A DNA stretch of 58,180 bases, taken from Candidatus Chazhemtobacterium aquaticus (GTDB lineage: Bacteria; Patescibacteriota; Microgenomatia; UBA1400; Chazhemtobacteraceae). A program made the position numbers and the translations under genes. The stretch spans positions 1 through 58,180 of the forward strand of contig NZ_CP047901.1 of the NCBI RefSeq assembly GCF_009936135.1, in the 5' to 3' direction. The notes under the pieces are model-generated. The model searched no databases and was not told where the DNA came from. It saw only the letters and a program-made list of their open reading frames with translations. Of the stretch, positions 6,830 through 55,490 are shown piece after piece (the stretch's first letter is position 1; each line of letters starts with the position of its first letter).

Positions 6830-6832
6830 TCT

Positions 6833-9800: not shown

Positions 9801-12800
9801 TTCAGGTTGCTACCACCACCACCATCAACACTCTAAGCGCCACTATTGCCAACTCCTCCCCTTTCCACATCGGCTCTCGCAATGGCGCCGCCCAGTTCTT
9901 CAACGGCCTCATCGACGAAGTCCGTGTCTTTAACTCCGTCCTTGACTCTGAAACCATCAAAGATCAGTACGTTTTAGGGTCAACCAATCATTTAAGTCTC
10001 CACCCCTCCCTTGACGCCATCTTAAAAAACGAGGGTAACGCCAGCCTAAATCTAACCACCGGCAAACTTAAAGTCGATCACGCCACCGTCGCCTACTATA
10101 CTCTCGACCAAACCGGTGGTTCCGGTGCCTACATCAAAGATCTCTCTTACAACGACAATCACCTTACCCCCACTGGTACGTCTTCCACCGACGGTATCTC
10201 AAATAAAGCCAGAAGCTTCAACGGAACCAGTAGCGATTATCTTTCTATAAACTCAAATTTAGGTTTAGGTACATCCAACATTACGATTGAAGCTTGGGTA
10301 TATATCAACTCCACCTCTCGTAACGGCGCTTTTGTTAAAATTGGCAACACGGGTGGTTACGGCATCGGCATTGGAGCCAGTACCTTTGATACTACTAGTC
10401 AAGGCAATGACCTAATCCTGCTCTACGAGAATGTTCGCTGGATCGATACCAACACAACCTTAGGAACAGGCTGGCATCACGTAGCCATGGTCATAGATGG
10501 TACTGGAGTCCCATCCGCCTACAAAGACGGTGTTCTTGTAGGTACATACGGCGGATCAAATGCTGTCTCACCCTCCAGTAACTCATATATTGGCGGCTAC
10601 ACAACCGGCGGATATGTTCGCTACTACAACGGCATAATAGACGAGGTTCGCATCAGCAATGTTGCTCGCACCGCCACCGAGATCGCCGAGAGCTACCGCC
10701 TTGGACGCAATCACAAGTTTAGTCTCATCAGCACCTCATCCAACAACCTATCAACCACCGACCACCTTCCCGTCTCCATTGCCGCTGACGAACCAGGTAC
10801 ATATCTCCAAACCAGCATCTCTGAAAGCTCATACAAAGACCTGGAACCAGAAAACAACACTGTTGCCCTCTACCACCTAGAAGAAGAAAGCCCGTCCAGC
10901 TCATATCTCGTTCAAGACTCCTCTGTCTACAAAAATCACGGTACCCCCACCTCCATCACACTCAATCAAGGTGTTATAGGCAACAGCGCCAAGTTCAGCG
11001 GTTCCGGCCAAATCAACCTCGGTAACCCATCCTCTCTTCAAATCACCGGTAATCAAACCATTGAGATGTGGATCTATCCCACCAGCTTCTCAGCAAGAAG
11101 AAACCCCTTCGCCAAAGCCTATGGCGGTGAAGGCACAATTACCCAAGAAACCAATGGCACTCTCAACTACTACTACGGTACTGCCGGCGGCAATACCACT
11201 CCCTACCAAGCCTTTAACTCCTCAGCTGCCTTAGAACTCAACAAATGGACCCACATCGCTCTGGTTCGGGACCTCACCAACATGACCCTCACCTGGTATT
11301 TCAATGGCGTCGTCGTCAACACTGCCACTGCTTCCTACGCATCCGCTACCGCCAGCTCACTTAACGCCCTCATCGGTAACGGCTACACCAACTACTTCAT
11401 CGGTTCTCTTGACGAAGTCCGCATTAGCAATGTAGCCAGAAGTGCCGAAAAAATACGCCAATCTTATGAAGCCGGTAAACGTACTCATTCCATTACTATC
11501 GACTTTGGCGCCTCACTTGACAGTGGCAACTTGATCTCCAACTCATCCGACACCTCCTTTACCATTGATGCCACCACCAAAGGTCTCTCTCAAAAAGGTG
11601 CCAATCTCTATACCGGTGACACCATCATCATCAAAGAAAACTACGACGGCACAGAATACATCGCCCAAGGCGAAGTCGCCTCAGTCAATAAAAGTACTGG
11701 CGCCGTCACTGTTTCAAGTTGGCAATCAGGCTCAACCTTCCCCGCCAGTGGTTTTACTATCAATGCCACCGTCTTTAAGTGGCAAACCGAGTACATCAAC
11801 ATTTCCAATATCCCCGATCAAGACCGAGACACTATTTACAACATTGGCCTTAAAATTACCGATGGTAATCAAGGCCGGTCTATCTGGATTGACAACCTAA
11901 GAAAATCCAGCGGCTACTACACCAACAACCTCTCCACCAGCATCGACTCCACTCCCAACCGCTACTTCCAGTACCGCGCCATCTTAACCTCTGCCGATAG
12001 CCAAGTGACTCCCACCTTAAACTCAGTCACTCTCGACTATGTCCAAAACTATACCCCCAACCAACCCTCTCTCGAGGCCGCCTACCTCCACGACAATCTC
12101 TACACCCCAGACTCCACCCCCACTATCCGCTTTTCCGCCACTGACGACGATAATGATGATATAAATTACCAAGTCCAGATCTACACCGATGCTGACTTTA
12201 GCTCCCCCACGAGTTACACAAGCGGCACTGACTCCGGTTTTGCCAACATCACCACCCCCGCCGATACCGCTCCTTTCAATGAAGGCGACACCATTAGCTT
12301 CACCTTCCCCACTCTCACCAGCGGCACCACTTATTTCTACCGTGTTCGCGCCATCGACCCTAGTGGTACCAACAGCTACGGCGACTGGTCTACCACCAAA
12401 TCCTTTACTATCAACACCTCACTTACCAACAACGCCTGGCATCAAACCCACGCTGATCAATTCTCCAGCGATACTGCCTCCCTCTTCATTAACATTAGCG
12501 ATGTCGGCAACTCCGTCACCATCAACAACCCTCTCATCTACCGCACTGTTACTATCAACAACTCAGGATCACAGCAGAGTAACTATGATGCTCTCATCGA
12601 ACTAGACACCGCCTCCCTCATCTCAGCTGGTAAGATGCAATCAGACTGTGATGATATTCGTTTCTGGACCGATGATACTTTAACCACCAATCTAAACTAC
12701 TATCTTGAATCCGGTTGCAACACCAGCACCACCCAAATCTGGGTTCGCATTCCCACCCTAAACTCAGGCGACAACATCATCTACCTCTCCTACAACGATG

Positions 12801-42284: not shown

Positions 42285-43637
42285 ATGTCCAAACCTTCCT
42301 CCATCTTTCTCTGCTCTTCCTGTGGCAACGAGTTTCCCAAGTGGTCTGGACAGTGTCCTGCATGTAAAAACTGGAACACTCTCTCTGAGCTCAAACTCCC
42401 AAACTCCCCCTCTCCTTCCTCCTCCACTCCGCTTAAATCAACCACTCCTTCCTCCGCCCTTAAAACCACTGCCAAGTCCACTCTTCCAAGCCAAATCGGT
42501 GAACTTGACCGCGTCTTAGGACCTGGTCTAACTCAAGGTGGTGTCTATCTCCTCGCTGGCGAACCCGGCATCGGTAAATCCACTCTCCTAACTCAACTCA
42601 CCCTCGCCCTCACCTCTGCTACTCAAAACACCATCACCTACGTCTGCTCTGAAGAAAACGCCGCCCAAGTCGCCACCCGCATCAACCGACTTCAAAAAGC
42701 ATCTCATCACCCCAACCGCATCTCACTTCTAGAAACCAGTAATGTTGAAGCTATTCTAAAGCACCTAAACACTCATCCGTCTACCACCCTCATCGTCGAC
42801 TCCATTCAATCAGTAGCCAGCGACACTCTTTCTACCACCGCCGGCTCCATGTCTCAAATTAGATCTGCTAGTAATCTCCTTATTCACTTTGCCAAATCAA
42901 CTGGTACACCCACCATTCTAGTCGGCCACGTTACTAAATCAGGCCAACTAGCTGGACCCAAGCTACTCGAACACATGGTTGATGTTGTTCTCCAACTGGA
43001 GGGCGATCGTCACCATGACTTAAGACTTTTACGAGGCGTCAAAAACCGCTTCGGCCCCACCGATGAAACCGGCCTCTTTCAGATGACTAGCTCTGGACTA
43101 ATTGAGGTCAAGAACCCAGGCTCTCTTTTTCTCTCCGACCAATCAGCCACTGCTCCTGGATCAGCCAAAACCTTGGTCATGGAAGGTACCAGACCCCTAC
43201 TTGTCGAGATTCAAGCCCTTACCGTACCCACTGAGCTAGCCATCCCTCGACGCGTCGCCCAGGGTATTCCTGTTCCCAAACTCCAGCTCATCTGCGCTGT
43301 TCTCACCAAACACTTGAATCTAAAACTCAACTCCTACGATGTCTTCGTCAACGTCACCGGCGGGCTCCGCCTCACCGATCCTGCCGCCGACCTGAGTTTA
43401 GCTCTCGCCATTATCAGCAGCTACAAAAATTTAAGCCTCCCTATAAACTCTCTTGCCCTTGGTGAACTAGGCCTTCTTGGCGAAATCCGCCCCATTGCCT
43501 ACCTTGACAAACGCCTTAAAGAGGCCAAAAATTTAGGCTACCAACCTCTTGATCCCAAAATCAACAATCTAAAAAAACTAAGCGCCACTCTGTTCTCCTC
43601 ATCAACTAAGCCCCAAAAGCCTCAAGCATCTGCTTGA
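42285..43637 (+). CDS. radA: DNA repair protein RadA/Sms
   Basis: N-terminal zinc finger CSSCGNEFPKWSGQCPACKNWN, Walker A GEPGIGKST, the KNRFG motif, and a Lon-like C-terminal domain. Confidence 0.95.
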   Translation: MSKPSSIFLCSSCGNEFPKWSGQCPACKNWNTLSELKLPNSPSPSSSTPLKSTTPSSALKTTAKSTLPSQIGELDRVLGPGLTQGGVYLLAGEPGIGKSTLLTQLTLALTSATQNTITYVCSEENAAQVATRINRLQKASHHPNRISLLETSNVEAILKHLNTHPSTTLIVDSIQSVASDTLSTTAGSMSQIRSASNLLIHFAKSTGTPTILVGHVTKSGQLAGPKLLEHMVDVVLQLEGDRHHDLRLLRGVKNRFGPTDETGLFQMTSSGLIEVKNPGSLFLSDQSATAPGSAKTLVMEGTRPLLVEIQALTVPTELAIPRRVAQGIPVPKLQLICAVLTKHLNLKLNSYDVFVNVTGGLRLTDPAADLSLALAIISSYKNLSLPINSLALGELGLLGEIRPIAYLDKRLKEAKNLGYQPLDPKINNLKKLSATLFSSSTKPQKPQASA

Positions 43638-43772
43638 TCTCCTTCTCGATTCTCTTCCAGTCACCCTTCGCCTTCTTAATCTCTTCAAAAATCAACTCTG
43701 CATCTACTAACACCTGGTCATCCTTGATGATTAACTTTGTTTTGGCCATATTATTTTCACTAATTATTAGCT

Positions 43773-44972
43773 CTATTTGTATCCAACTGGTACCTCAGTC
43801 AACACCACTCCCAAACTCATCCTTCTATTCTCCTTATCCAACATCTCTACATACACATCTACTTCCTCGCCAACCTTAAACTCTCTTCCTGCAGGCATCT
43901 TACTTATATGAATCAAGCCATCAATCCCAGCCTCAAAATTCACAAATACTCCAAAAGGCGCTAGTCTTACCACCGTACCCTTGTGCTGAGTTCCTTCAGC
44001 ATAGTTTTTCTCAATTGATTGCCATGGATCATTAGCTAATCTCTTGACTGACAAGTTAAGCTTACTCGTATCTTCCTCAATTCCAATCACTTGAACCTTC
44101 ACCTTATCCCCTACTTTGTAGTATTTGTTTGGATCATCAACCTTCTCCCAACTAATCTCACTAATATGAATCAAGCCTTCCAGCTTACCCTGATCCTCAT
44201 CCTTATCATCACTAATCTCTACCTTAATAGTCACAAACACTCCAAACGGCATGATTCCACTCACTACACCTTCTAACACATCACCCTTCTTAATCTTCTT
44301 TAAGGCCTCACCCTTCTTAGCAATCTCACCTGCCTCAGACACAATCTTCTCGCTAAAAATCAACCTGTTTTGCTCTCTGTCTACCTCAATTACTTGAGCT
44401 TTAAATGTCTTATCAATCAACTTATCCATCTTGCCCAGGTATTCCTGGCTAAACTGCGACGCTGGCACAAACCCTCTCATCCCATCTACCAACACAATCA
44501 ATCCTCCCTTGTTCGTCTCAAGACCCTTAATCTCAATTGGTTTACCTGTCTCCAACCACTCACTGAACAACTCCCATCTCTTGTCATCAGCTGCCTGGCG
44601 CAAACTTAGCAAGATCTGACCTTGATCATTCTCTGGGTTTTTCACAAACACCTCAATCTCATCCCCGACACTTAAAGTCTGAATCAACGCTGCTGCTGCC
44701 TCTGCTTCTTTATCGATTACTAGCCCTTCAGTTTTTGCCCCAATATCAACCAACACCAATCTTTTCCTTACCTCAGTCACCATACCCTTAATCACATCAC
44801 CTCTCTTGGGTACATTTAACTGATACCCAGTTTTAGCCAACAACTCATCCATCGACTTAAATCCTTTCGACTTAGAAACAACCTTCTCTTTCTTGGTGAT
44901 TTTTTTAGAGTTCTTTTTTACCACCTCTTTCTTTCCTTTTTTTAAGGCAGAACTCTTTCGCTTAGTAGCCAA
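43773..44972 (-). CDS. rpsA: 30S ribosomal protein S1 (four S1 domains, Lys-rich N-terminal extension)
   Basis: TTG start. Four repeated S1/OB motifs (G.V..V....V.VDIG...EG; GVVSGIMPFGVFV; GTVVRLAPFGVFVNF..GIDGLIHIS). Confidence 0.9.
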   Translation of the reverse strand: MATKRKSSALKKGKKEVVKKNSKKITKKEKVVSKSKGFKSMDELLAKTGYQLNVPKRGDVIKGMVTEVRKRLVLVDIGAKTEGLVIDKEAEAAAALIQTLSVGDEIEVFVKNPENDQGQILLSLRQAADDKRWELFSEWLETGKPIEIKGLETNKGGLIVLVDGMRGFVPASQFSQEYLGKMDKLIDKTFKAQVIEVDREQNRLIFSEKIVSEAGEIAKKGEALKKIKKGDVLEGVVSGIMPFGVFVTIKVEISDDKDEDQGKLEGLIHISEISWEKVDDPNKYYKVGDKVKVQVIGIEEDTSKLNLSVKRLANDPWQSIEKNYAEGTQHKGTVVRLAPFGVFVNFEAGIDGLIHISKMPAGREFKVGEEVDVYVEMLDKENRRMSLGVVLTEVPVGYK

Positions 44973-45072
44973 CTCTAATTATTAACCTATCTTTAAGCAG
45001 ACAGGTCATGTAAATTACTTGATAACAATAGCCGTCATTTTATCACACCTCTAGGCTCAAGCACAATCACCG

Positions 45073-46155
45073 CTATCCAATCACCCCACCACCCAGTAGT
45101 TCATCACCTTCATAAAACACCGCCGCCTGACCTGCCGCCACTCCTCTCTGTGGTTCATCAAGCTCAACTCTCATTTTCTCACCACTCCACTCTCCTCTTG
45201 CTCCAATCAATTTGCCCCCATGCCGAATTCTTACCCTAAAACCATCCTCACTTACTCTCTTACTCCACACCCAGCTTAAATCACTAACCATCAAACTCTC
45301 CCTATATGTCTCAGCCCCAAACCCAACCACCAACCTATTGTTCTTTACATCCTTGTCCACTACATAAAAAACCGGAATCTCTCCTCCGAACTTTTTCTGA
45401 AAATTAGCACTCACTTGCCAACCACCTCTCTGGCCAATTGTGTAAAACCAAACACCCCTGTGCTTACCCACTACTCTTCCGCTTGTATCCACTACCTCGC
45501 CTTCATTATCCTGCAGCCTCCTATGCAAAAACTCGCTTATATCTACATCCCCCACAAAACATATCCCCTGACTATCTTTCTTATCCGCCACTGGCAAACC
45601 AACCTCACTCGCAATTTTTCTCACCTCTTTTTTCTCATAACTCCCCAAGGGAAACATTGCCCGACCCAACTCCTCCTGACCCAATCGGTACAGAAAATAG
45701 GTCTGGTCCTTCCATTTATCCTTAGGCATAAACAAACCCCATCTTGTCTGATCCTCTTCCTCAACTTTCCTGACCTCTGCATAATGACCAGTCGCTATCT
45801 TGTCAAAACCCTCGCTTCTCGCCCACTCCAAAAACATACCAAACTTTATCTCACTGTTACACCAAACATCCGGGTTTGGTGTCAAACCCTTAGCATAATC
45901 ATCATAAAACCGATCAATCACCCTCTCCTTGTACTCCTTTTGAAAGTCTAACACCCCAAAGGGTATCTCTAATGCCATTGCCACTTTTAAAGCATCCTGA
46001 CGGTCCCTCGATGCTTTACACCCCGGTCCTTCATCCCAACACACCAGGTGCACACCAACTACATCATATCCCTCACGTTTAAGCAGATAAGCGCTCACCG
46101 CACTATCCACCCCACCGCTTAATCCGACAGCTACTTTTTCGCGACTCATGGGCAC
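45073..46155 (-). CDS. mnmA: tRNA 2-thiouridine(34) synthase MnmA
   Basis: PP-loop VAVGLSGGVDSAV. Conserved NPDVWCNSEIKF and DQTYFL motifs, and a C-terminal barrel. Confidence 0.9.
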   Translation of the reverse strand: MPMSREKVAVGLSGGVDSAVSAYLLKREGYDVVGVHLVCWDEGPGCKASRDRQDALKVAMALEIPFGVLDFQKEYKERVIDRFYDDYAKGLTPNPDVWCNSEIKFGMFLEWARSEGFDKIATGHYAEVRKVEEEDQTRWGLFMPKDKWKDQTYFLYRLGQEELGRAMFPLGSYEKKEVRKIASEVGLPVADKKDSQGICFVGDVDISEFLHRRLQDNEGEVVDTSGRVVGKHRGVWFYTIGQRGGWQVSANFQKKFGGEIPVFYVVDKDVKNNRLVVGFGAETYRESLMVSDLSWVWSKRVSEDGFRVRIRHGGKLIGARGEWSGEKMRVELDEPQRGVAAGQAAVFYEGDELLGGGVIG

Positions 46156-46174
46156 AATTATACTACTCCTAGCC

Positions 46175-47056
46175 TCACATAGCCACCACTTTTATCATCT
46201 CTGCCGCCACATTCACACCCGTTCTCTTCTCAAAATACTTAAACTGAGCCGTTCTGTTTATCTCCAATACCACCCAATCCTGCTTCTCCTCGTCCCAAGC
46301 TACGTCTAAACCTGCATAATCAATCGCAAACAACTCACACGCCCTCAAACACAACTCTCTAAGCCTCCTCATCTTTTTCTCACTTAATTTAACCAACTTA
46401 CCTTCCTCACCCTCATATTTACTCTTCTGTCTATGTCTCATCTCACCTAAATACTTACCTCCCACCACAATACAGCGATACCACTGTTTTATCTTCAACT
46501 TTGGCTGCACCAACACCTCTCCCGTCTTGTATCCTTTCATCACCTCCTCAAATCCATCCCAGTCTCGAACCAACTTAACTGCCCTACCATGGCTACCAAA
46601 CCGCCCCTTAACCACCATTGGAAAATTAAACCACGGCTCTTCCTCAAAATCCTCCCAACCTGATTTACTCCCAAAACTCACAAAATCAACCGTTGATACT
46701 CCATACTTTGCCAACACCAAGCCCTGTTCCAACTTACCCATCAATGGAAACTTCTCAAAACTCTCTCCATTCAACACTTTTGCCCTACCATCTCTCTTTA
46801 ACATCTCCAGCACCGCTGTCTTTGTTCCCACCATCGAACTTCCTTTTTTACTAGAGGCTCGCATCACCACCACCTCATAATCATCCAACCTTCTCTTCTT
46901 CCGCAAATCTATCTCCACCTTACCTCCACTCACTCCTAAACTAATCTGTCCGTACTTAACCAAATCAACCTCATATCCCATCTTTCTACCCTCCTCTGCC
47001 AATCTTACTGGCTCATACTCCTTCACAAACCGAGTTAATATCAACATTTTTTTCAT
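46175..47056 (-). CDS. RimK-like ATP-grasp ligase (paralog 1)
   Basis: 293 aa with ATP-grasp core motifs (PMVVKGRFGSHGRAVKLV; LVQPKL; YAGLDVAWDEE..WVVLEINRTAQF). Confidence 0.8.
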   Translation of the reverse strand: MKKMLILTRFVKEYEPVRLAEEGRKMGYEVDLVKYGQISLGVSGGKVEIDLRKKRRLDDYEVVVMRASSKKGSSMVGTKTAVLEMLKRDGRAKVLNGESFEKFPLMGKLEQGLVLAKYGVSTVDFVSFGSKSGWEDFEEEPWFNFPMVVKGRFGSHGRAVKLVRDWDGFEEVMKGYKTGEVLVQPKLKIKQWYRCIVVGGKYLGEMRHRQKSKYEGEEGKLVKLSEKKMRRLRELCLRACELFAIDYAGLDVAWDEEKQDWVVLEINRTAQFKYFEKRTGVNVAAEMIKVVAM

Positions 47057-47095
47057 GTTCCCATCTTATCACCCCCACCTGTTTTTAAGAATCCT

Positions 47096-48007
47096 TTACC
47101 TCTCAGCCTTCCCCACCAAGTACTCCACAATCATCTTTACAATATTTTTACCTGTCCTTTTCTCCATCACCCTAAACTCCGGTGCTTCGTTTACCTCAAC
47201 CACATACACCTTTCCATCTCGACTATCTTTCACTAAATCAATTCCCGCCACCTCCACCTCCACTGCTCGAGCCGCCGCCTCTGCCACCTCTACCACCTCA
47301 CTTGGCACCTCCTTAAGTCCTTCCGATCTCCCCAGCGACTTATTCATCACCAACTTTTCTTCCTTAGCCTGTCTCTTAAAACCCGCCACCACTTTGTATC
47401 CCACCACAAAAACTCGATAATCCCCATCATTAGGTATATACGGTTGAATCAAAAACCCTCTAAAGACTGGTACCTCCCTACCTTCCTCAACTGCAACTCT
47501 TTTTCTTTCCTCCAACTTCTCTGCCAACTCATCCAAATCCTCTCTTTTCCTAATCCAAAAGGTCCCCATCCCATGTCTGCCTCCCTTGCTTAACTTAACC
47601 ACTACCGGCAACTCCCAATTATCTAACTCACTCACTAAATCAGCCAGCTTCTCTACCAAAACTGTTTTAGGATAACTTACCCCTTTCTCAATTAACTGCC
47701 ACCCCATTACTGCCTTAAATCGTCGCAACGGACCCTCTGTCCCCAGATACTCATCCACCATTGGAATCTTATGTTTTCGCGCATACAAATCAAGCAATTT
47801 ACTCCACTCCAACTCTGATCCCACTGCTCGAAAGTAAAACAAATCAAAATCACTTAACTTCATATCTCCAAAATATATCTCGGTGTCCTGCAAACTAAGC
47901 TGCCGATACTTAATCGGCACTATCTCAATCCCCAGCTTCAGCCCTTCCTCCACAAACCGCTTATGAGTCTCAAATTTATCCAGTCTATAAAAATATGCAA
48001 TTTTCAT
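47096..48007 (-). CDS. RimK-like ATP-grasp ligase (paralog 2)
   Basis: 303 aa with PVVVKLSKGGRHGMGTF, FLIQPYIPNDGDYRVFVVG and VAGIDLV..KVYVVEVNEAPEF. Confidence 0.8.
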   Translation of the reverse strand: MKIAYFYRLDKFETHKRFVEEGLKLGIEIVPIKYRQLSLQDTEIYFGDMKLSDFDLFYFRAVGSELEWSKLLDLYARKHKIPMVDEYLGTEGPLRRFKAVMGWQLIEKGVSYPKTVLVEKLADLVSELDNWELPVVVKLSKGGRHGMGTFWIRKREDLDELAEKLEERKRVAVEEGREVPVFRGFLIQPYIPNDGDYRVFVVGYKVVAGFKRQAKEEKLVMNKSLGRSEGLKEVPSEVVEVAEAAARAVEVEVAGIDLVKDSRDGKVYVVEVNEAPEFRVMEKRTGKNIVKMIVEYLVGKAER

Positions 48008-48011
48008 ACTC

Positions 48012-49316
48012 CTATCTTACTCTAACTAACCGAGGATCAATCAGAAACTCCTTCAAGTCTTTTCTCCCTAAAATCATCTTTGTTCGTAATCCATGCCTAT
48101 TAGTCACACTTGCCTGCGCCCTAAATCTCACTCCTTTAAGCTTCATGTCCACCTCAATGATCTTCCGTCTTTCCTTACCTAAAGCTGACCGAAAAGTTCT
48201 CTCCCATAACACATGCTCCTGGCTCAATAACCCCAACTCAGTCGCCAATTCTTCGTCAATACTTGAACGAAAAGCTCCCGTGTCAAGCTTTGCCCTCACC
48301 TCAACCCGCTTACCCTTATGTGGCTTTAATCTCACCGTTTCAAACACCCCCACCACCTGTTTCTCACCCGGTACCCCTCTCACTCGATGAGAAAACTTTG
48401 AAGCAAACAATGCCTTAGCCACTCTGACTGCTTTTTCCACGTCCTCAATCTCTATCCCCTCAACCCGCTCCAACCTTCGCTTCAATCCAGTCATATTCGC
48501 CAGCTGGATCGACAGCCCGGGCTGATCATTGATCTCAATCACCATTGGACCCCTTTCCTTATCAAGCAAAATATCTACTCCAAAGTAACCCAAGCCTGGT
48601 CGTTTAAACTGGATTCTACTCGCCGTTTCAAGCACTTTATTCCAAAAAGGTATCGCAATCCCATTCACCTTTTTCTTAGTTCCCGGAAAGTGCTTAATCC
48701 TCCTATCATGATGTACTGCATGGGTCGTTATCCCTGTAGCCAAATCCACCCCCAAACCAATGGCTCCCTGATGCAAGTTGCTCTTCCCCTTACTTTCCTC
48801 CGTTGGCACTCTAAGCATCGCCATCACCGGCACCCTATTAAACACAATCACTCTTACATCCGGAGTTCCCCCCACTGCTACCTTAACAAACTTCGGGTGA
48901 ATCTTGACCCGTCTCTCAATCAAAGCCCTATCCGGCAAGTTATTTCTACTATACCTTCCTTCAATAATATCGTTAGCATGAAGTTTCAAGTCACCCACTC
49001 CGACCTTGCCTCCATCCATCAACAGCCACTCACCCGCATACTTAGCCGGCTTTTTTACCACCATGATCCCCGATCCACCCAATCCATCTACTGGCTTGAT
49101 TACAAAACCATCATCCAAAGAATTCCAGTCAAACTCCTCTACCTCTTGAGACGAACCAAGCAATCCCAAGATCTCTGGATGCGGTATCTTGTACTTCCGC
49201 AAAAACTGCTTGGTCAGCATCTTTGAATCAGCCGTCTTTCTAGACTGCTTCTTGTTCAAGCCCAAGTAATATTTGCTCCGGGCATTAATCCCTAAGATAT
49301 CCTTCGCATTAGCCAT
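48012..49316 (-). CDS. Alpha-L-glutamate-ligase-like ATP-grasp fused to a retropepsin-like (RimB/'ATP-dependent Zn protease' PF05618-type) domain
   Basis: The N-terminal ILGINARSKYYLGLNKKQSRKTADSKMLTKQFL and the body (VIKPVDGLGGSGI; YFGVDILLDKERGPMVIEINDQPG) match the RimK-related E-ligase-like family. The C-terminal part is VGVFETVRLKPHKGKRVEVRAKLDTGAFRSSI...VTNRHGLRTKMILGRKDLKEFLIDP. It carries the DTGA aspartic-protease signature and the LGR..L..FL(I/V)DP ending of that domain. Confidence 0.8.
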   Translation of the reverse strand: MANAKDILGINARSKYYLGLNKKQSRKTADSKMLTKQFLRKYKIPHPEILGLLGSSQEVEEFDWNSLDDGFVIKPVDGLGGSGIMVVKKPAKYAGEWLLMDGGKVGVGDLKLHANDIIEGRYSRNNLPDRALIERRVKIHPKFVKVAVGGTPDVRVIVFNRVPVMAMLRVPTEESKGKSNLHQGAIGLGVDLATGITTHAVHHDRRIKHFPGTKKKVNGIAIPFWNKVLETASRIQFKRPGLGYFGVDILLDKERGPMVIEINDQPGLSIQLANMTGLKRRLERVEGIEIEDVEKAVRVAKALFASKFSHRVRGVPGEKQVVGVFETVRLKPHKGKRVEVRAKLDTGAFRSSIDEELATELGLLSQEHVLWERTFRSALGKERRKIIEVDMKLKGVRFRAQASVTNRHGLRTKMILGRKDLKEFLIDPRLVRVR

Positions 49317-49318
49317 TT

Positions 49319-50302
49319 TTATCTCTCCAACAATTTACGAAACCGCCACCTCTCCAACAACCGCAAACCATCATATCTCCCAATTAAAACATCCAAAACC
49401 ACAATCGCTACCACCGCAATCTCAGGATTAAGCAGTACCCACTCCTGCAAACCCTGAGTACTCATAACCAAGAAACTCAACAAAGCCAGCAACAATGTCT
49501 GACCTGTCATTACCAAGGCTGTTTTTAAGGTCGTTGTAATCTGCACCTCTATAAAAGTCTCTACCAAGAGAATCAGTAACAAAATCGGGAAGATACTAAT
49601 CTTCACCAAACCCTCTAACTTCAACCATGGAGATGCCAACATCAAGCCCAACACCCCCATCGACACAAACCAGATCAACAAAGCCATACGTGGTAAAGAC
49701 GGCAACTTTAGCTTCCTCATCACCATTCTAGCCAACGTTGCCATCAACAAAATCCCGCCAAACAAAATTACTCCCACCGTCACTCCAGTTGCCAAAAATG
49801 CCACCGCGATCACCGCTGGAGTAAAAATTCCAAACCCATGCAGACCCACCACATGCCTGGCCGCTGCGATCAGCGCCGCTACCAACGGAAACAGCATCAT
49901 CAACACTATCGTATTCGCTGGTACCCCATTACTTACCGCTCTCCTAATCGCCACCTGCAAAAAATTGGCCACTCCAAGCTGGCCCACCTCCTTAGAATCA
50001 AGCACTCTCTCCAATCTTGTCTTGGCTTCTTTAGGCTCAGTCAAGTCATCTTTAGGTGGTTTAACTTCTTGCACTGCTGCAGCTGTTGCCTCCTCAGCTG
50101 ACATGCTTGCCTCACCTGGCTCACTAGACATCGTTGCCACCAACATATCTTCTCCCACTTGAGCTCTCACCTCACCAGTTACCACCAATAATCCCAACAC
50201 CACCAATAGTAATATCCCTTTTTTCATCATTTCTCGCCTCTGCCTCAACCTAAATTCTAACTCTAAAGCGAATTCTACCAAACGCCCGTGCCTAAGTGTC
50301 AA
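49319..50302 (-). CDS. 7-TM membrane protein of the 'inactive transglutaminase-associated 7TM' type
   Basis: 327 aa. A signal/TM segment is followed by a soluble acidic segment and then seven hydrophobic helices. The C-terminal IGRYDGLRLLERWRF matches the conserved ending of that 7TM family. It sits 2 nt upstream of the ATP-grasp/retropepsin gene. Confidence 0.65.
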   Translation of the reverse strand: MTLRHGRLVEFALELEFRLRQRREMMKKGILLLVVLGLLVVTGEVRAQVGEDMLVATMSSEPGEASMSAEEATAAAVQEVKPPKDDLTEPKEAKTRLERVLDSKEVGQLGVANFLQVAIRRAVSNGVPANTIVLMMLFPLVAALIAAARHVVGLHGFGIFTPAVIAVAFLATGVTVGVILFGGILLMATLARMVMRKLKLPSLPRMALLIWFVSMGVLGLMLASPWLKLEGLVKISIFPILLLILLVETFIEVQITTTLKTALVMTGQTLLLALLSFLVMSTQGLQEWVLLNPEIAVVAIVVLDVLIGRYDGLRLLERWRFRKLLER

Positions 50303-52137
50303 ACAACAGTTACATCACTATACCGATGTCCATCATCACTTAATCTTCGTTCAATCTCCAGCTTGGCCTCACTACCTACCCCTGCCACCACCAACTCAAA
50401 AGTATAAAGTTGACCATCGCCCTCGGTTTTACCCAATCTGATCACCCCCCCAAATTCACTAATCAATCCGCTCACCTCAGCCATTATCCCCCTCTCATCC
50501 CGACCTGCCAGCCTTATCTTCATCAATCCCGACCTCACCCCCTCCAACTCACTTCTCTCAAATACCCTAACTACCTCCTCTACTGCCCTATTTCCCAATC
50601 CCATCTCTAAATACAGCTCCTCAATATCTCTAACTCCAAGCTCCATCAACACCAAGCGCATCTTCTTCCGTTCATTCTCACCCCAAACCAAGTCATTCAA
50701 ATCATCAAATCCCTTCGACTTCATCCAGGATGTTAACAAACCTCTGCCACGCTCAAGATCAGCCGTCGCTCCAATCTCTTTAGCTATCTCCTCTAACTTC
50801 TCTCTTGTTTTAGGCAACATCGCATACTCAAACAATCCAACATCCACCCCATTACCCTCCTTCATTACCAGTCTCACCACCGCTGCATTTGGAATATTAA
50901 TACTCAAAGGAAACTCTCTATCATCAACCAATATTGATCCCACACTATGTAATAACTGCGGATCAATACTCACCACCAAATCCACCCCAGTTGCTTCCTC
51001 AGGTAAAAACTTAATCACCCTCCCCTCAGTATCAAAAAATAGCTTTAGACTGTACCTGCTCACATCCTCTCCCCTTCTCAAACCTCTCACCACCCCCCAA
51101 GCATTAAACTCCTCCATCTCCTCAGTTACAAATGCTACCTCTGTTGATCCTTCTTTTAGTCTTAATCCCTCATGCATCGCCCGATACCCGTTATACGTCT
51201 TTTCTGTTATGTAATCATCCGCCCTTTGTGGATCAACCAATCCATCCTCGCTTACCCTTATATACTGACTAGCCATCCGGCAATCAAGTTCACTAGGCAA
51301 TACCACCCTAAAACTAACTAACTGAACCTGTGAAAAATCTCTAGCTCGCATGCTCTCCCTTTTCTTAACTGCCTCCCAATATCCCATCACCTGCCACTCA
51401 ACTCTACCCTCAACTCCCATCTCAACCAACATTCTCTCCAATCTTGTCTGCCAATGATACAAAAACTCTCTTCTTAGCCTCAAGTCACTATCTATCCTTC
51501 TCTTAGCCTCCTCCATCTTCTCTGGATATAGATAAAACACCGACAAATCCTCCAGTTTTCGTTTTACCTCCCACACCCCCAAAGACTCAGCCAGTGGCAC
51601 ATACACCTCAAACGTTTCTCTCGCTTTAGCAATCCTCTTTTCCTGAGGCATCGGCTCTAACGTCATCATATTATGCGTCCTGTCGGCTAGCTTAATCAAC
51701 GCCACCCGTGGATCCAAGCCACTCTCTCTTACCACCCTCTTTGTCGTCTCAATATCCTCCTGTCTCTTTGTTCTTCCCGTTCCCTTTAACTCAGTTACAC
51801 AACCAACCAACTTTGCCACCTCTGCACCAAACTTAGCTTCCAATTCCTCCAAACTTACTCCAGCATCCTCAACCACATCATGAAGCAACGCAGCTGCCAA
51901 AATCTGTTCATCATCTATACCCATCACCTCTCTAACCAAACTAGCTACCGCCACCAAATGATCGGTATAATCAGAGCCATCCCTTCGTTTCTGACCTGCA
52001 TGTTTCTCCAGTACAAAATCATATGCCTGTCTTTCAAGCTCACTACCAGATTGATACTCCTCTGTTTTTAACGCAAATCCCCATCCCTTTCTTAACTCAA
52101 AATCAACTCTATGTATATCTCTCTCCAATCCTGACAT
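50299..52137 (-). CDS. RelA/SpoT homolog (long RSH): intact HD hydrolase domain, degenerate synthetase domain, TGS and ACT domains
   Basis: HD motifs are HLVAVA, LLHDVVED and IKLADRTHNMMTL. The synthetase-region equivalents are altered:
- GRxKxxxSI is replaced by MGYWEAVKK.
- DLxxxR is replaced by QLVSFR.
- YQSLHT is replaced by YRAMHE.
- EVQIRT is replaced by EVAFVT.
The C-terminal ACT-like segment is IRLAGRDERGIMAEVSGLISEFGGVI. The gene overlaps the downstream 7TM gene by 4 nt. Confidence 0.85.
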   Translation of the reverse strand: MSGLERDIHRVDFELRKGWGFALKTEEYQSGSELERQAYDFVLEKHAGQKRRDGSDYTDHLVAVASLVREVMGIDDEQILAAALLHDVVEDAGVSLEELEAKFGAEVAKLVGCVTELKGTGRTKRQEDIETTKRVVRESGLDPRVALIKLADRTHNMMTLEPMPQEKRIAKARETFEVYVPLAESLGVWEVKRKLEDLSVFYLYPEKMEEAKRRIDSDLRLRREFLYHWQTRLERMLVEMGVEGRVEWQVMGYWEAVKKRESMRARDFSQVQLVSFRVVLPSELDCRMASQYIRVSEDGLVDPQRADDYITEKTYNGYRAMHEGLRLKEGSTEVAFVTEEMEEFNAWGVVRGLRRGEDVSRYSLKLFFDTEGRVIKFLPEEATGVDLVVSIDPQLLHSVGSILVDDREFPLSINIPNAAVVRLVMKEGNGVDVGLFEYAMLPKTREKLEEIAKEIGATADLERGRGLLTSWMKSKGFDDLNDLVWGENERKKMRLVLMELGVRDIEELYLEMGLGNRAVEEVVRVFERSELEGVRSGLMKIRLAGRDERGIMAEVSGLISEFGGVIRLGKTEGDGQLYTFELVVAGVGSEAKLEIERRLSDDGHRYSDVTVV

Positions 52138-52223
52138 CTTACTCCCAGATCATACAAAAAAATCATCCAAAAAGCAAATACTACAGGACACAACGCTCCT
52201 TTACCATTTCCGTCGTAAACCGA

Positions 52224-53465
52224 CTATTCCATCTCTACTACTCCAAAATCTTTCTTTCCCTTCCTTACCAAAAAATACTTATCATAAAACAACTCGTAAC
52301 TTACACCGTTTTGTTCAACTACTCTTCGAGCCTCACTCTTGGAGCTAACTAAACCTAGCTCCACCAACACTTCTTCAATAACTATCTCTGATTTACTCTT
52401 AATCTCCATATGGGGAATTGCCAGCTTAACAAACTCAAAGTCGCTCCTACTCATCCTTTCCTTACCCCGATCGAACAAAACTTGAGCCACTTTACGTGAC
52501 TGCTTTGCCTTTTTCTCACCATGTACTGTTGTCACCAACTCCTCCGCTAAAACCCTTTGCACCAATCTACCCTGACGATCTTTGTCCCAATCGCTCAACA
52601 CCTTCTTAATCACTTTTATGTCTTTAAATGAATAAAACTTTAACAAAGTTGGTGCCAATTCATCACTTACATTAATCAAAAACTGATACAGGCCAAAGGG
52701 ATGAGTCTTTTCAGGATCAAGCCAGATCGCTGATCCAGATTCTGTTTTGCCAAACTTTCTTCCAGTTTTTGGATCAACAATCAATGGAAAAGATAAACCA
52801 TGAGCCGTTTTCTCATACTTCCTTCTAATCAAATCGACTCCTTGCAAGATATTGCCCCACTGGTCAGACCCACCCATCTGCACATTACATCCATGTTTCT
52901 CAAACAATACTGCAAAATCATATGCCTGCAACAACTGATACGAAAACTCTGCGTAAGATAATCCCTGTTCTCGTTCCAACCTTGCTTTCACTGACTCCTT
53001 GTCCATCATTGAACTAACTGGCATATACTTACCCACTTCTCGCAAAAACTCAATCAGCTTAACCTTCCCCAACCAATCAACATTATCAATCATATGCACT
53101 CTCTTACCATCAAAATCCAAAAATCTAGATAATTGTTTCTTCAACTTCCTCTTATTTGCCTCAATCACTTTGTAATCCACCATTGGCCTCTCCGCGTCCT
53201 TTCCAGACGGATCTCCAATCAACGACGTTCCTCCACCCATAATGATAATCGCCTTATGTCCAGCATCTACAAATCTCTTCGCCATCGTCACCCCCATCAA
53301 ATGACCGATGTGCAAACTGTCTCCCGTCGGATCAATCCCAATATACACCGTCACCTCTTTGCTCAAATCCTTGTCCAACCCGGGTGTTGCATCATAAACC
53401 AAACCCCGCCACTTAAGATCTCTCCAAAAATTTTTATCAATCATTGTCATAATTTTATCACTCAT
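52224..53465 (-). CDS. tyrS: Tyrosine--tRNA ligase
   Basis: Class I HIGH motif (DSLHIGHL), KMSKS equivalent KFGKT, GGSDQWGN, and a C-terminal S4-like domain (SKSEARRVVEQNGV). Confidence 0.95.
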   Translation of the reverse strand: MSDKIMTMIDKNFWRDLKWRGLVYDATPGLDKDLSKEVTVYIGIDPTGDSLHIGHLMGVTMAKRFVDAGHKAIIIMGGGTSLIGDPSGKDAERPMVDYKVIEANKRKLKKQLSRFLDFDGKRVHMIDNVDWLGKVKLIEFLREVGKYMPVSSMMDKESVKARLEREQGLSYAEFSYQLLQAYDFAVLFEKHGCNVQMGGSDQWGNILQGVDLIRRKYEKTAHGLSFPLIVDPKTGRKFGKTESGSAIWLDPEKTHPFGLYQFLINVSDELAPTLLKFYSFKDIKVIKKVLSDWDKDRQGRLVQRVLAEELVTTVHGEKKAKQSRKVAQVLFDRGKERMSRSDFEFVKLAIPHMEIKSKSEIVIEEVLVELGLVSSKSEARRVVEQNGVSYELFYDKYFLVRKGKKDFGVVEME

Positions 53466-53468
53466 TAA

Positions 53469-54239
53469 TTACTTAAGTGTCACCATCATCCCATCACGAG
53501 CAAGCAAACACCTTTTTGCCCGCAGAAAATTCTCTATCTCCTTAACATTCTCAGAATGATTTACATGAGTATAAATCACCTCTCGCTTCAATATATCCAC
53601 AGATTTCTCAATTGTCAGATGATTAAATTTTGAAGCAGGATAAGTATTTTCATTTAAGAAAGTCCCATCAAATACAACAACATCAATCATCGCGATTTCC
53701 TTAATCATCTTTTCTGTTATCTCGCTCACATCAGGTGAATACCATACCTTACCTGACGAATCGGATACGATTACAGCCACTGTGGGAAATCCAGGGTCAT
53801 GGGGAACATCGACCAGCTTCACTCCACACTTCTTTGCATTATCCTCACTCACCAACTTAACAAAACCTGACTTGACCATATACTCAATTTCTTGATTGGG
53901 AAACCTTTTCCAAAGTCTCCGAACCCTCTCAGACACCAACACCGGAACCTTACACGGCCGACCTCCAGACAACTCAATTAACCCATTCGCATGATCAAAA
54001 TGAAAATGAGTTATCACAATCAAATCTAAATCTCGAATCTTCAATCCAACACCACTTAATTGCTGACGAAAATCCGGACCACAATCCAATAGAATTCTTG
54101 ACCTTTTTGTCTCAACCAACAAACTACTCCTCAGCCGCTGTTTATTCTTTTTCTTTAAAGCAGCACGGCAATACTTACAGTCGCAATCCACTTGAGGCAA
54201 ACCACCATTAGCGCCAGTTCCCAAAAAAGTTATCTTCAT
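53469..54239 (-). CDS. MBL-fold metallo-hydrolase (PhnP/tRNase Z-like)
   Basis: The N-terminal FLGTGANGGLPQVDCDCKYC has the Cys cluster seen in PhnP/PqqB-like members. The HxHxDH motif is ITHFHFDHANG. The 4-nt overlap (ATGA, 54236-54239) is with the upstream NTase-like gene. The stop (53469-53471) lies 3 nt upstream of the tyrS start at 53465. Confidence 0.8.
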   Translation of the reverse strand: MKITFLGTGANGGLPQVDCDCKYCRAALKKKNKQRLRSSLLVETKRSRILLDCGPDFRQQLSGVGLKIRDLDLIVITHFHFDHANGLIELSGGRPCKVPVLVSERVRRLWKRFPNQEIEYMVKSGFVKLVSEDNAKKCGVKLVDVPHDPGFPTVAVIVSDSSGKVWYSPDVSEITEKMIKEIAMIDVVVFDGTFLNENTYPASKFNHLTIEKSVDILKREVIYTHVNHSENVKEIENFLRAKRCLLARDGMMVTLK

Positions 54240-55177
54240 TTCAACCCATTACTAATTCGCAACTCTGTCAATACTGGCCACAACTTAATCACTCCCCTAT
54301 ACAGACCTTCCACCTCATCCAAATCAACCGCCGAACCCATTGACCTCAATCGACGAATCTCATGAACTACAGTCACTAACGCCTCACTTCCTAGGGCATT
54401 CGGGAAATTATCAATAATTTCTTCCCAAGTACCAACCTCAATATTCTTACCGTCCTCAACAACATTAGCCATCGCCCATTTTAAGCTGTAATCCAACACA
54501 TGTATCGTTTGAGGACCCAAAAACTCTACCGGCAATACATGTCTATTTGTCCTCAACATTCTAAAATTATCACTAATGCCATCTAAACCTCCTACTGTTA
54601 AATTATGATCGCTTATCACCACCCCAGCTCGCGCCATCTCAGCTATTTGACGGGCCGCCTCCTCATCACCCCACAAACCCAATGATTGTCCAAATAATCC
54701 TCTTGTTAGCTTGGGAGGCTCAAATGCCAAAGCCGCCCTTGCTGAAGGGTAAATCAATGAATGAACCATATGAAGATTGGCATCAGGACCAGCCACCAAA
54801 CGTGCAATCGCCATCTGGGCATCTTCAAGTCTAATCGTCGAAGCAAACACTGGGGTTGTCCCAAATTTTTCCATAATCTTTCTCGTTGCAACGTTCATTG
54901 CATCTAAAACCAAATCGTAAGCGTCTAAATTAACTGGATCGTCTTCTTGAGCACCGTCAAGCAAAATTACCAAATCATCATCACTGATCACTCCACCAAC
55001 TTCCCCTTTAAGCTCAGCCTGTCTAGCCTTACTTCCAGAAACTGCAATCCACTTAACTCTTGCTCCTATCTCAGGGTTTTCTTTAACAGCAGTATCAATT
55101 TCATCAACTATTGCCCCAACAACTGGTTGCGCCAAAAACTCAACTCTCAATTTTTCTTGCTCTGGTGTTCTCGCCAT
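54236..55177 (-). CDS. Hypothetical protein with a Pol-beta-type nucleotidyltransferase-like signature
   Basis: The start is reassigned to the ATG at 55177 (MARTPEQEKL...), because the ORF-track start at 55270 lies inside the T-box terminator/antiterminator. The segment IAVSGSKARQAELKGEVGGVISDDDLVILLD resembles the hG(G/S)-x(n)-D-x-D NTase motif. The fold call is tentative. Confidence 0.6.
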   Translation of the reverse strand: MARTPEQEKLRVEFLAQPVVGAIVDEIDTAVKENPEIGARVKWIAVSGSKARQAELKGEVGGVISDDDLVILLDGAQEDDPVNLDAYDLVLDAMNVATRKIMEKFGTTPVFASTIRLEDAQMAIARLVAGPDANLHMVHSLIYPSARAALAFEPPKLTRGLFGQSLGLWGDEEAARQIAEMARAGVVISDHNLTVGGLDGISDNFRMLRTNRHVLPVEFLGPQTIHVLDYSLKWAMANVVEDGKNIEVGTWEEIIDNFPNALGSEALVTVVHEIRRLRSMGSAVDLDEVEGLYRGVIKLWPVLTELRISNGLK

Positions 55178-55197
55178 ATTTTTTATAAATAAATAAC

Positions 55198-55490
55198 AAA
55201 AAAGCCCTTGCTTGAATCCAAAAAAAATTAGACTCAAACAAGGGCCTTCAAGAACTAAAGACGGTACCACCTTGCTTTTGCCATTCTGTCACCAGAATGA
55301 CCTCACCGAGTGCTCTGTTTACCTTAAATAGGTGACACACTCTCGATATTTTACGGTTATCTTCCGTGTCTGATTTAGTCAGACCAGCTCCAGAGGGTAA
55401 TTTCACATTTTGAATTCGACTGGTTTGCAGCTACCACCAGCTCTCTTATGTCACTTCAAAAAGCTACTATTTCTCCTTCAACGCCTTTGA
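55198..55490 (-). promoter_or_regulatory. T-box riboswitch leader, probable Tyr (UAC) specifier, with intrinsic terminator
   Basis: Elements on the minus strand:
- T-box sequence AAGGUGGUACCGU (55273-55261).
- Canonical antiterminator: helix CAAGG/CCUUG, 7-nt bulge UGGUACC, helix GUCUU/AAGGC.
- Competing 15-bp terminator: GCCCUUGUUUGAGUC (55245-55231) with GGAUUCAAGCAAGGGC (55219-55204), then U6 (55203-55198).
- Stem I K-turn (GUU bulge, tandem G:A pairs).
- AGUA element.
- AG bulge AGAGAG followed by distal hairpin CUGGU-GGUAGCUGCAA-ACCAG.
- Specifier-loop 3' side GAAAUUACC, with UAC at 55399-55397 one nt before the lower helix. Confidence 0.85.

Follow-up and report, generated by a model that had tools for sequence, protein, structure and literature searches.

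The window analysed here comprises 58,180 nucleotides (nt) of Candidatus Chazhemtobacterium aquaticus, a member of the Microgenomates in the order UBA1400 and a relative of Collierbacteria (contig NZ_CP047901.1, positions 1 to 58,180), and its minus strand carries, at 50230-46175, four closely packed genes encoding a seven-transmembrane (7TM) protein and three ATP-grasp enzymes, one of them fused to a retropepsin-like protease. The 7TM gene (49319-50230; 303 amino acids, aa) is followed after 2 nt by the fusion open reading frame (ORF; 49316-48012; 434 aa), in which a putatively RloC-type ATP-grasp ligase domain (about aa 1-305, 48402-49316) precedes a retropepsin-like domain (about aa 318-434, 48012-48365). 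The gene for RimK-like ATP-grasp 1 (47096-48007; 303 aa) starts 4 nt further on, and that for RimK-like ATP-grasp 2 (46175-47056; 293 aa, with a pre-ATP-grasp N-domain) after another 39 nt. Upstream, on the same strand, lies a gene for a 612-aa RelA/SpoT homologue (RSH; 50299-52137), separated from the 7TM gene by a 68-nt spacer (50231-50298) that contains a promoter-like block. Downstream, mnmA and then rpsA continue on the minus strand, and the translation genes mnmA, rpsA, tyrS and lysS surround the locus.

An initial annotation, made from the letters of this DNA, had already listed the ORFs 52137-50299, 49316-48012, 48007-47096 and 47056-46175 with mnmA and rpsA behind them, and these are present as it described; its gaps of 2, 4 and 39 nt agree with the ORF coordinates, and profile searches against Pfam and NCBIfam returned all the families that it had assigned. 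Two of its further proposals, an overlap of the RSH and 7TM genes and a coupling of RSH to the ligase genes, did not withstand comparison with related genomes and are taken up below.

Proteins of the four-gene block

The 7TM protein matches PF14402 (7TM_transglut) with an E-value of 3e-26 (92.7 bits against a cut-off of 25, profile positions 57-247), and no transglutaminase domain was matched in it by profile search. Against the RloB model NF052267 it scores 69 bits, the alignment being confined to the C-terminal positions 312-506 of 508. The best 120 homologues are built alike: they measure 176-381 aa, mostly around 300, and contain PF14402 only. In the AlphaFold2 (AF2) model (predicted local distance difference test, pLDDT, 83.4; residues 23-54 disordered), a signal helix is followed by a disordered, acidic and Ala-rich extracytoplasmic linker, seven transmembrane helices and a basic cytoplasmic C-terminal helix at aa 291-302. 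Only about 80 mostly disordered residues stand between the signal peptide and the first transmembrane helix. The signal peptide and the basic loops point to a topology with the N-terminus outside and the C-terminus inside.

In the fusion protein, the ligase domain is assigned to PF14397 (ATPgrasp_ST) with an E-value of 7e-64 (216 bits against a cut-off of 31.4), and its residues N180, Q183, G184, A185, D248, E261 and N263 are invariant. Structural comparison of this domain by Foldseek retrieved ArgX/LysX and RimK, a poly-alpha-L-glutamate synthetase, with E-values of about 1e-8, and cyanophycin synthetase as well. The protease domain matches Asp_protease_2 (5e-6) and reaches 26.4 bits with PF05618, just below the cut-off of 27. 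Its DTGA motif (residues 345-348, nt 48284-48273) is part of a set of invariant positions comprising D345-A348, G417, R418 and D420. Among 79 fusion orthologues, all carry xD[TS]GA, and 78 have K or R two residues ahead of the Asp. The domain aligns to the RloA crystal structures 9g58 and 9g59, including their K-x-D-T-G-A and T-x-R motifs, and Foldseek superposes it on 9g58 with an E-value of 2e-6 and a TM-score of 0.57. The AF2 model of the fusion (pLDDT 81) displays two domains joined by a flexible linker at aa 307-317 (pLDDT <50). The protein begins with the ATP-grasp domain and has no signal sequence, and both the ligase and the protease domains are on the cytoplasmic side. The fusion protein is strongly conserved: the best 120 homologues share 55-73% identity and all measure 429-460 aa.

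The two stand-alone ligases pass the Pfam domain cut-off for PF08443 (4e-22 and 2e-19, the second also matching Rimk_N at 6e-7). RimK-like 1 aligns over its full length to Pseudomonas RimK (7qyr) and RimK-like 2 over its full length to E. coli RimK. The ATP-binding Lys and the metal ligands (D and ExN) are retained in both, as are the counterparts of RimK R8, R64, R189 and N262, the residues that contact poly-Glu (PMC10092738). Their scores lie below the family cut-offs, with 94 and 97 bits against 143 for TIGR00768 and 52.9 and 38.5 bits against 331 for the S6-ligase equivalog NF007764. The loop RSNLHRGG of RimK, which brings R211, H215 and R216 into the active site, is replaced by LVMNKSLGRS in RimK-like 1 and shortened to KYEGEEG in RimK-like 2. 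This divergence is found across a Collierbacteria-like clade (the window and loci L003-L017), while in Woesebacteria- and Shapirobacteria-type loci many RimK-like genes retain the canonical form, EFRSNxSLGG. Because the active-site loop has diverged, the RimK-like chemistry may be altered or lost in the Collierbacteria-like clade, a change or loss that looks specific to this lineage.

Conservation of the module and predicted start of its transcription

When one genome per GTDB species was scanned, more than 575 stretches were found to encode the fusion protein. The counts given here, obtained by tblastn and ORF clustering, refer to the best 80 of these loci, which are labelled as Collierbacteria, Woesebacteria, Shapirobacteria and other Patescibacteria. 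The 7TM gene stands immediately before the fusion gene in 75 of 77 loci, the two being mostly -7 to +30 nt apart. The arrangement highlighted in the initial annotation, in which one of three ATP-grasp genes also encodes the protease, is real. A RimK-like gene directly follows the fusion gene in 59/76 loci, and a second one occupies the next position in 32/72. At least one RimK-like gene occurs among the next five genes in 63/79 loci, and two or three, as in the window, in 39/79. Upstream of the 7TM gene the content varies from locus to locus (DsbA, UppS, LeuRS, membrane proteins). The block of 7TM, fusion and RimK-like genes is thus conserved across many Microgenomates species, and defines a Microgenomates-wide compact variant with a RloB-type 7TM protein devoid of transglutaminase domain, a fusion of a probably RloC-type ligase to a retropepsin and usually one or two RimK paralogues.

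Two additional genes recur in some of these loci and may be accessory parts of the module. One, of about 204 aa and, as judged by eye, with an S-adenosylmethionine (SAM)-methyltransferase-like motif, lies amid the RimK-like genes of L025, L035, L039, L046, L048, L053, L056 and L059, which are more distant and mainly of Woesebacteria type. The other, a 486-aa protein resembling, again by eye, a further ATP-grasp enzyme, follows the fusion in L018, L022, L037, L044 and L050, directly in four of them.

The position of the 7TM start codon determines whether this gene can overlap the RSH gene. The initial annotation had described a 4-nt overlap, which requires a start at TTG 50302. This start was rejected, as no Shine-Dalgarno (SD) sequence precedes it and as homologue N-termini, gene calls and stop codons in sister species all disagree with it. 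The start is placed at ATG 50230 because the N-termini of the 7TM homologues compared all begin with a similar hydrophobic, signal-peptide-like stretch, because gene callers predict a 7TM protein of 303 aa and a gap of 68 nt on eight contigs of this species, and because in-frame extension is blocked in two sister species by stop codons located 3 codons (L097) and 10 codons (L092) upstream of the ATG. Indeed, ATG 50230 is preceded by an SD-like GAGG and opens the signal-peptide-like N-terminus MMKKGILLLVVLGLLVV. To judge from these comparisons, the overlap is an artefact of ORF extension, and since the genes do not overlap, the translational coupling of RSH and 7TM that had been proposed is not retained: stop and start codons are 68 nt apart, the spacer holds a conserved -10 box, and the adjacency of the two genes was found in 0/80 species-level loci.

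Within this spacer, an extended -10 box, TGGTAGAAT, lies at 50280-50272 and is conserved in the clade of the window; a TTGACA at 50302-50297 overlaps the RSH stop codon. The block AGGCACGGG(C/T)GTTTG(G/A)TAGAATTCGC is invariant on four contigs whose proteins share 80-99% identity, a conservation that exceeds that of the flanking coding DNA. Counting as a -10 box any hexamer with at least 5 of 6 matching positions, one is present within 60 nt of the 7TM start (-60 to -9) in 70/77 loci, 32 of them with a TGn extension, whereas the same range before the fusion gene, used as a control, has one in 28/84 and a TGn extension in none. Between -22 and -9 the figures are 51/77 for the 7TM gene and 13/84 for the control, and in 36/77 loci the hexamer begins at -12 or -13 from the 7TM ATG, ending 6-7 nt before the start codon. 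Because the position of the -10 box is conserved across loci, unlike in the fusion-gene control, the 7TM gene is predicted to be the first gene of a transcription unit that is often leaderless, and the same pattern suggests that the promoter of the Microgenomates variant as a whole is frequently of this kind. This prediction is based on comparative position and conservation, not on a generic promoter scan, which was uninformative alone (9 sites against 14.8 expected by chance). A scan of 43500-53600 against Rfam at E <= 1 gave no match, and thus no riboswitch or leader RNA in the RSH-7TM spacer.

The invariant spacer block itself measures 26 nt, which is longer than a -10 box requires. It resembles the leaderless promoters TGGTAAAAT(A/T)CGC..ATG of L089 and L096, and looks as if the start codon had shifted about 45 nt downstream in the clade of the window.

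At its other end, the ligase operon probably stops at RimK-like 2, because mnmA has a perfect TATAAT of its own (46162-46157, within the feature 46147-46162 on the minus strand; read from the sequence, by consensus only) located 7 nt before its ATG at 46149. This TATAAT likely marks the start of a separate leaderless mnmA transcript. Membership of mnmA and rpsA in the operon was considered and rejected, as only Collierbacteria-like loci have mnmA behind the RimK genes and as it has its own TATAAT in the window. Together, the 36/77 loci with a -10 box near the 7TM start and the TATAAT of mnmA suggest a frequent use of leaderless transcripts by these bacteria.

Comparison with known systems and proposed function

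The association of a 7TM protein with ATP-grasp and retropepsin genes was reportedly first described by Iyer et al. in 2009. The initial annotation had rightly called this neighbourhood known yet functionally unsolved; it has since been named RloABC, an operon of Pseudomonas aeruginosa and Gammaproteobacteria (Lormand et al. 2025, PMC12239564). As in RloABC, the window operon combines a RloB-type 7TM module and a RloA-type retropepsin with K-x-D-T-G-A with an ATP-grasp enzyme that is probably of the RloC type. Unlike RloB, the window 7TM protein lacks the periplasmic inactive transglutaminase domain and, whereas RloA is secreted and stands alone, the window protease has no signal peptide and is fused to the C-terminus of a cytoplasmic ligase. 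The gene order is B-(C::A) instead of A-B-C, most loci of the variant add one to three RimK paralogues, and the hosts belong to a Patescibacteria lineage, whereas RloB has been reported as 96% proteobacterial (PMC12239564).

The second related group is formed by RimABK and RimBK, in which a cytoplasmic retropepsin is likewise paired or fused with an alpha-L-glutamate ligase. RimB not only trims poly-Glu but also stimulates RimK in making poly-alpha-Glu, and proteolytic activity has been shown for a RimBK hybrid (Little et al. 2025, PMC11957791). In that hybrid, the protease is N-terminal and the ligase is a true RimK, whereas the window protease is C-terminal and its ligase is of the ATPgrasp_ST/RloC type. 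Moreover, RimABK has no membrane partner, and the RimK-like genes of the window are separate and below the equivalog cut-offs. With E. coli RimK, which is both an S6 glutamate ligase and a poly-alpha-Glu synthetase (PDB 4iwx, 5zct), RimK-like 1 and 2 share the ATP-grasp fold, a full-length alignment, the Lys and the metal ligands; they differ from it by an identity of only 20-30%, by the replaced or shortened loop and by NF007764 scores far below the cut-off. The locus thus fits RloABC and RimBK, yet fails on the transglutaminase domain, the secreted protease and the RimBK domain order. In the literature, our search retrieved no follow-up on Rlo beyond the 2025 paper (PMC12239564), and the papers ranked highest in a search combining RimK, retropepsin and the candidate phyla radiation (CPR) mentioned neither RimK nor retropepsin.

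With moderate confidence, we read the four genes at 50230-46175 as an operon with its own promoter, a compact variant of RloABC and RimB-RimK that would act on glutamate chains. By analogy with the biochemistry of RimK/RimB and of RloA, we infer a membrane-tethered synthesis and trimming of poly-alpha-glutamate. Docked on the 7TM protein, the fused ligase would work on the inner side of the membrane and join glutamate through alpha linkages into chains, which could be free or attached to an acceptor. The retropepsin domain, dimerised via oligomers of the fusion, would trim these chains and limit their size, and it may also, like RimB with RimK, raise the turnover of the ligase. The 7TM protein would tether the enzyme or pass its product outward. 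As for the RimK paralogues, they might bind the acidic chains and extend or prime them, unless they have drifted to another role. RloA and RimB are known to cut runs of at least 8 Glu, and the defects caused by deleting three rloA genes are suppressed when rloB or rloC is deleted as well (PMC12239564).

Several results weigh against this reading. The fusion aligns to TIGR02291 over the full length of the model (9-303 of 317) and scores 263.6 bits, below the cut-off of 314.2, and the matches of its protease domain to the NCBIfam RloA3 and RimB models are weak (these families, as well as RloB, were defined in 2025). A Foldseek search with the 7TM model retrieved no meaningful match in the PDB (best E = 3.2), and so no clue to a transporter or an anchor. 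RimK-like 1 and 2 lack the loop with which RimK brings Arg, His and Arg into its active site, and may be inactive. Nearby RimK-like genes are missing in 16/79 loci, some of which are truncated contigs. Lastly, the initial annotation had named an internal promoter and a terminator between RSH and the ligase genes as the elements that would separate them; the conserved promoter-like element is present, but no terminator-like site was found between RSH and 7TM, so that read-through from RSH is possible.

One alternative, which we regard as unlikely, divides the locus into two unrelated systems, the RimK paralogues adding tails to ribosomal protein S6, as those of E. coli and Pseudomonas do, while the 7TM protein and the fusion work separately at the envelope. 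The loci without a nearby RimK-like gene are in line with such a division, as are the translation genes around the locus and, in both paralogues, the full-length alignment to S6-glutamate ligases and the retention of the poly-Glu-contacting Arg residues. Against it, the 4-nt and 39-nt spacings and the order of fusion then RimK-like gene in 59/76 loci point to one unit; scores on the S6-ligase equivalog fall far short of its threshold, the active-site loop has diverged in the Collierbacteria-like clade, and no S6 gene is present in the window or in the fetched loci. Nor does the window encode a candidate substrate in the form of a protein with an acidic C-terminal tail or a poly-E run.

Another reading, in our view equally improbable, is that the ligases do not make poly-glutamate and act on the envelope, amidating or cross-linking one of its components (for instance a stem peptide of peptidoglycan, a polysaccharide of the surface or a lipid-linked precursor), and that the 7TM protein serves them as a flippase or presents the acceptor. 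The ligase structures retrieved as closest matches, RimK, ArgX and LysX, act on peptide or protein carboxylates, and the protease belongs to a family shown to cut poly-Glu, with the K-x-D motif and the T-x-R arginine kept. PF14397 is named for its association with sugar transfer, and genes for Ddl, a Mur ligase, a glycosyltransferase, UppS or DsbA lie upstream in some loci; these upstream genes vary, however, and are not conserved with the module. Pseudomonas rlo mutants show cell-shape, beta-lactam and osmotic phenotypes, and disruption of a RloB homologue alters vesicle production, both of which would accord with a role at the envelope.

Bacteria with genomes of about 1 Mb keep, in many species, a stripped-down version of the rlo system. 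This form suggests that the minimal core consists of the 7TM protein, the RloC-type ligase and the retropepsin. As the transglutaminase domain and the secretion of the protease both occur in Gammaproteobacteria and are both absent here, they are predicted to work together in the periplasm. The presence of ligase and protease on one polypeptide is also convenient for in vitro work on the substrate, the product and the cross-talk between both activities.

The RSH neighbour and other features of the window

The initial annotation had regarded the RSH gene as encoding a protein of (p)ppGpp metabolism. The protein matches HD_4 (1e-34) and RelA_SpoT, the latter barely (28.6 bits for a cut-off of 27), and reaches 262 bits against a cut-off of 499 with TIGR00691. 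The HD hydrolase motifs HDVVED and ADRTHNM are intact, and H46, H60, H86, D87, E90, D91, D152 and N156 are invariant in alignment A3. Compared with Rel of Mycobacterium tuberculosis and M. smegmatis, the synthetase motifs GRPKHYW, DLVGVR and EVQIRT read WQVMGYW, QLVSFR and EVAFVT, with loss of RxKH (RPKH to QVMG), of the Mg-binding Asp (DL to QL) and of QIR (to AFV). The TGS region is degenerate and the C-terminus is ACT-like. By its motifs, this RSH is most plausibly no more than a (p)ppGpp hydrolase carrying a pseudo-synthetase domain, as those for synthesis are degenerate. In its long RSH layout, its intact HD domain and its retained but degenerate synthetase domain, it is like Acinetobacter SpoT (PDB 7qpr), which we take to be a monofunctional, hydrolase-only long RSH; it is nevertheless distant from it (E 4e-30), lacks the zinc-finger region and has a degenerate TGS.

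The window protein belongs to a clade of Microgenomates RSH of about 600 aa (P0246-P0263 in alignment A3), which have intact HD motifs and lack RxKH, QIR and the zinc-finger region, the Mg-binding Asp being additionally lost in the subclade of the window. By their motifs, these proteins may be hydrolase-only long RSH enzymes.

The proposed linkage of RSH to the operon did not survive a survey of gene neighbourhoods. RSH adjoins the 7TM gene in none of the 80 species-level loci and lies within 10 kb in two, L003 and L016, about 6 kb upstream (profile search of the flanks). The adjacency was met with only in L081-L088, L094, L097 and L092/L093, that is, in the species of the window, a 96% relative, an 86% relative with the order tyrS-RSH-7TM (L097, 86% RSH identity) and an 80% relative with EamA before RSH (L092/L093, 80% 7TM identity); it is thus limited to the species of the window and two or three close relatives. 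Similarly close relatives do not have it, namely L063 (83% 7TM identity), L001, L002, L089 and L091, nor do the contigs encoding the fusion relatives P0002 (73%) and P0011 (70%). Three RSH orthologues with 34-38% identity lie in unrelated contexts, with HisRS, GyrB and a beta-CASP RNase. A metagenome scan for close relatives of RSH returned two loci, and the RSH contexts were taken from protein-based look-ups. The species of the window is present in samples from anaerobic digesters or biogas (ERZ794915, SRR19330069, ERZ925063). RSH is a local neighbour outside the conserved unit. As L096 displays the intermediate order RSH-DsbA-orf-UppS'-7TM, RSH likely came to lie beside the operon in one narrow lineage when the genes between them (DsbA, UppS, LeuRS) were lost from a syntenic block. 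The link that made the locus look most unusual is therefore unsupported as a general feature.

A recruitment of the hydrolase-only RSH in the lineage of the window, as a RimA-like, (p)ppGpp-sensing trigger enzyme tuning the ligase/protease operon, appears still less probable than the two alternatives above, given the absence of adjacency in all 80 species loci and in the similarly close relatives, the more distant orthologues with unrelated neighbours, the conserved promoter and lack of overlap between the genes, and the many genomes having the module without a nearby RSH. In its favour, RSH is directly upstream on the same strand without a terminator in the window species, L097 and L092/L093, the adjacency is kept although the genes before RSH differ (tyrS or EamA), RSH lies within 1.6-6 kb in L096, L003 and L016, and its synthetase domain is degenerate but retained. 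There is also a precedent, since RimABK likewise has a second-messenger hydrolase gene alongside: rimA, for a cyclic di-GMP phosphodiesterase, shares a transcript with RimB/RimK in some species but not in others (Grenga et al. 2020, PMC7343187; PMC12239564). If true, a RimA-like RSH would link a stringent-response signal to polyglutamylation in an ultra-small bacterium.

For none of the five locus proteins did PADLOC return a match to a defence-system model. Elsewhere in the window, at 53469-55270, a 256-aa metallo-beta-lactamase (MBL)-fold protein matches the Anti-Pycsar Apyc1 family of cyclic-nucleotide phosphodiesterases and has weak PADLOC matches only. Its gene overlaps by 4 nt an unannotated ORF of 313-344 aa without Pfam match, and the pair recurs in L061. 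At 77-14797, the plus strand carries two consecutive, very large ORFs (2250 and 2654 aa).

Along the entire window (1-58180), G is strongly under-represented relative to C on the plus strand, with a GC skew of -0.10 to -0.62 and a steadily falling cumulative skew, independently of the strand of the genes. Plus-strand proteins, for example RadA (42285-43637), are rich in S/T/P/L, and minus-strand proteins in G/E/V/R. Such a G/C disparity between the strands, extending over the whole genome, is described for Ch65, Collierbacteria and Beckwithbacteria in the order UBA1400 (PMC7143001).

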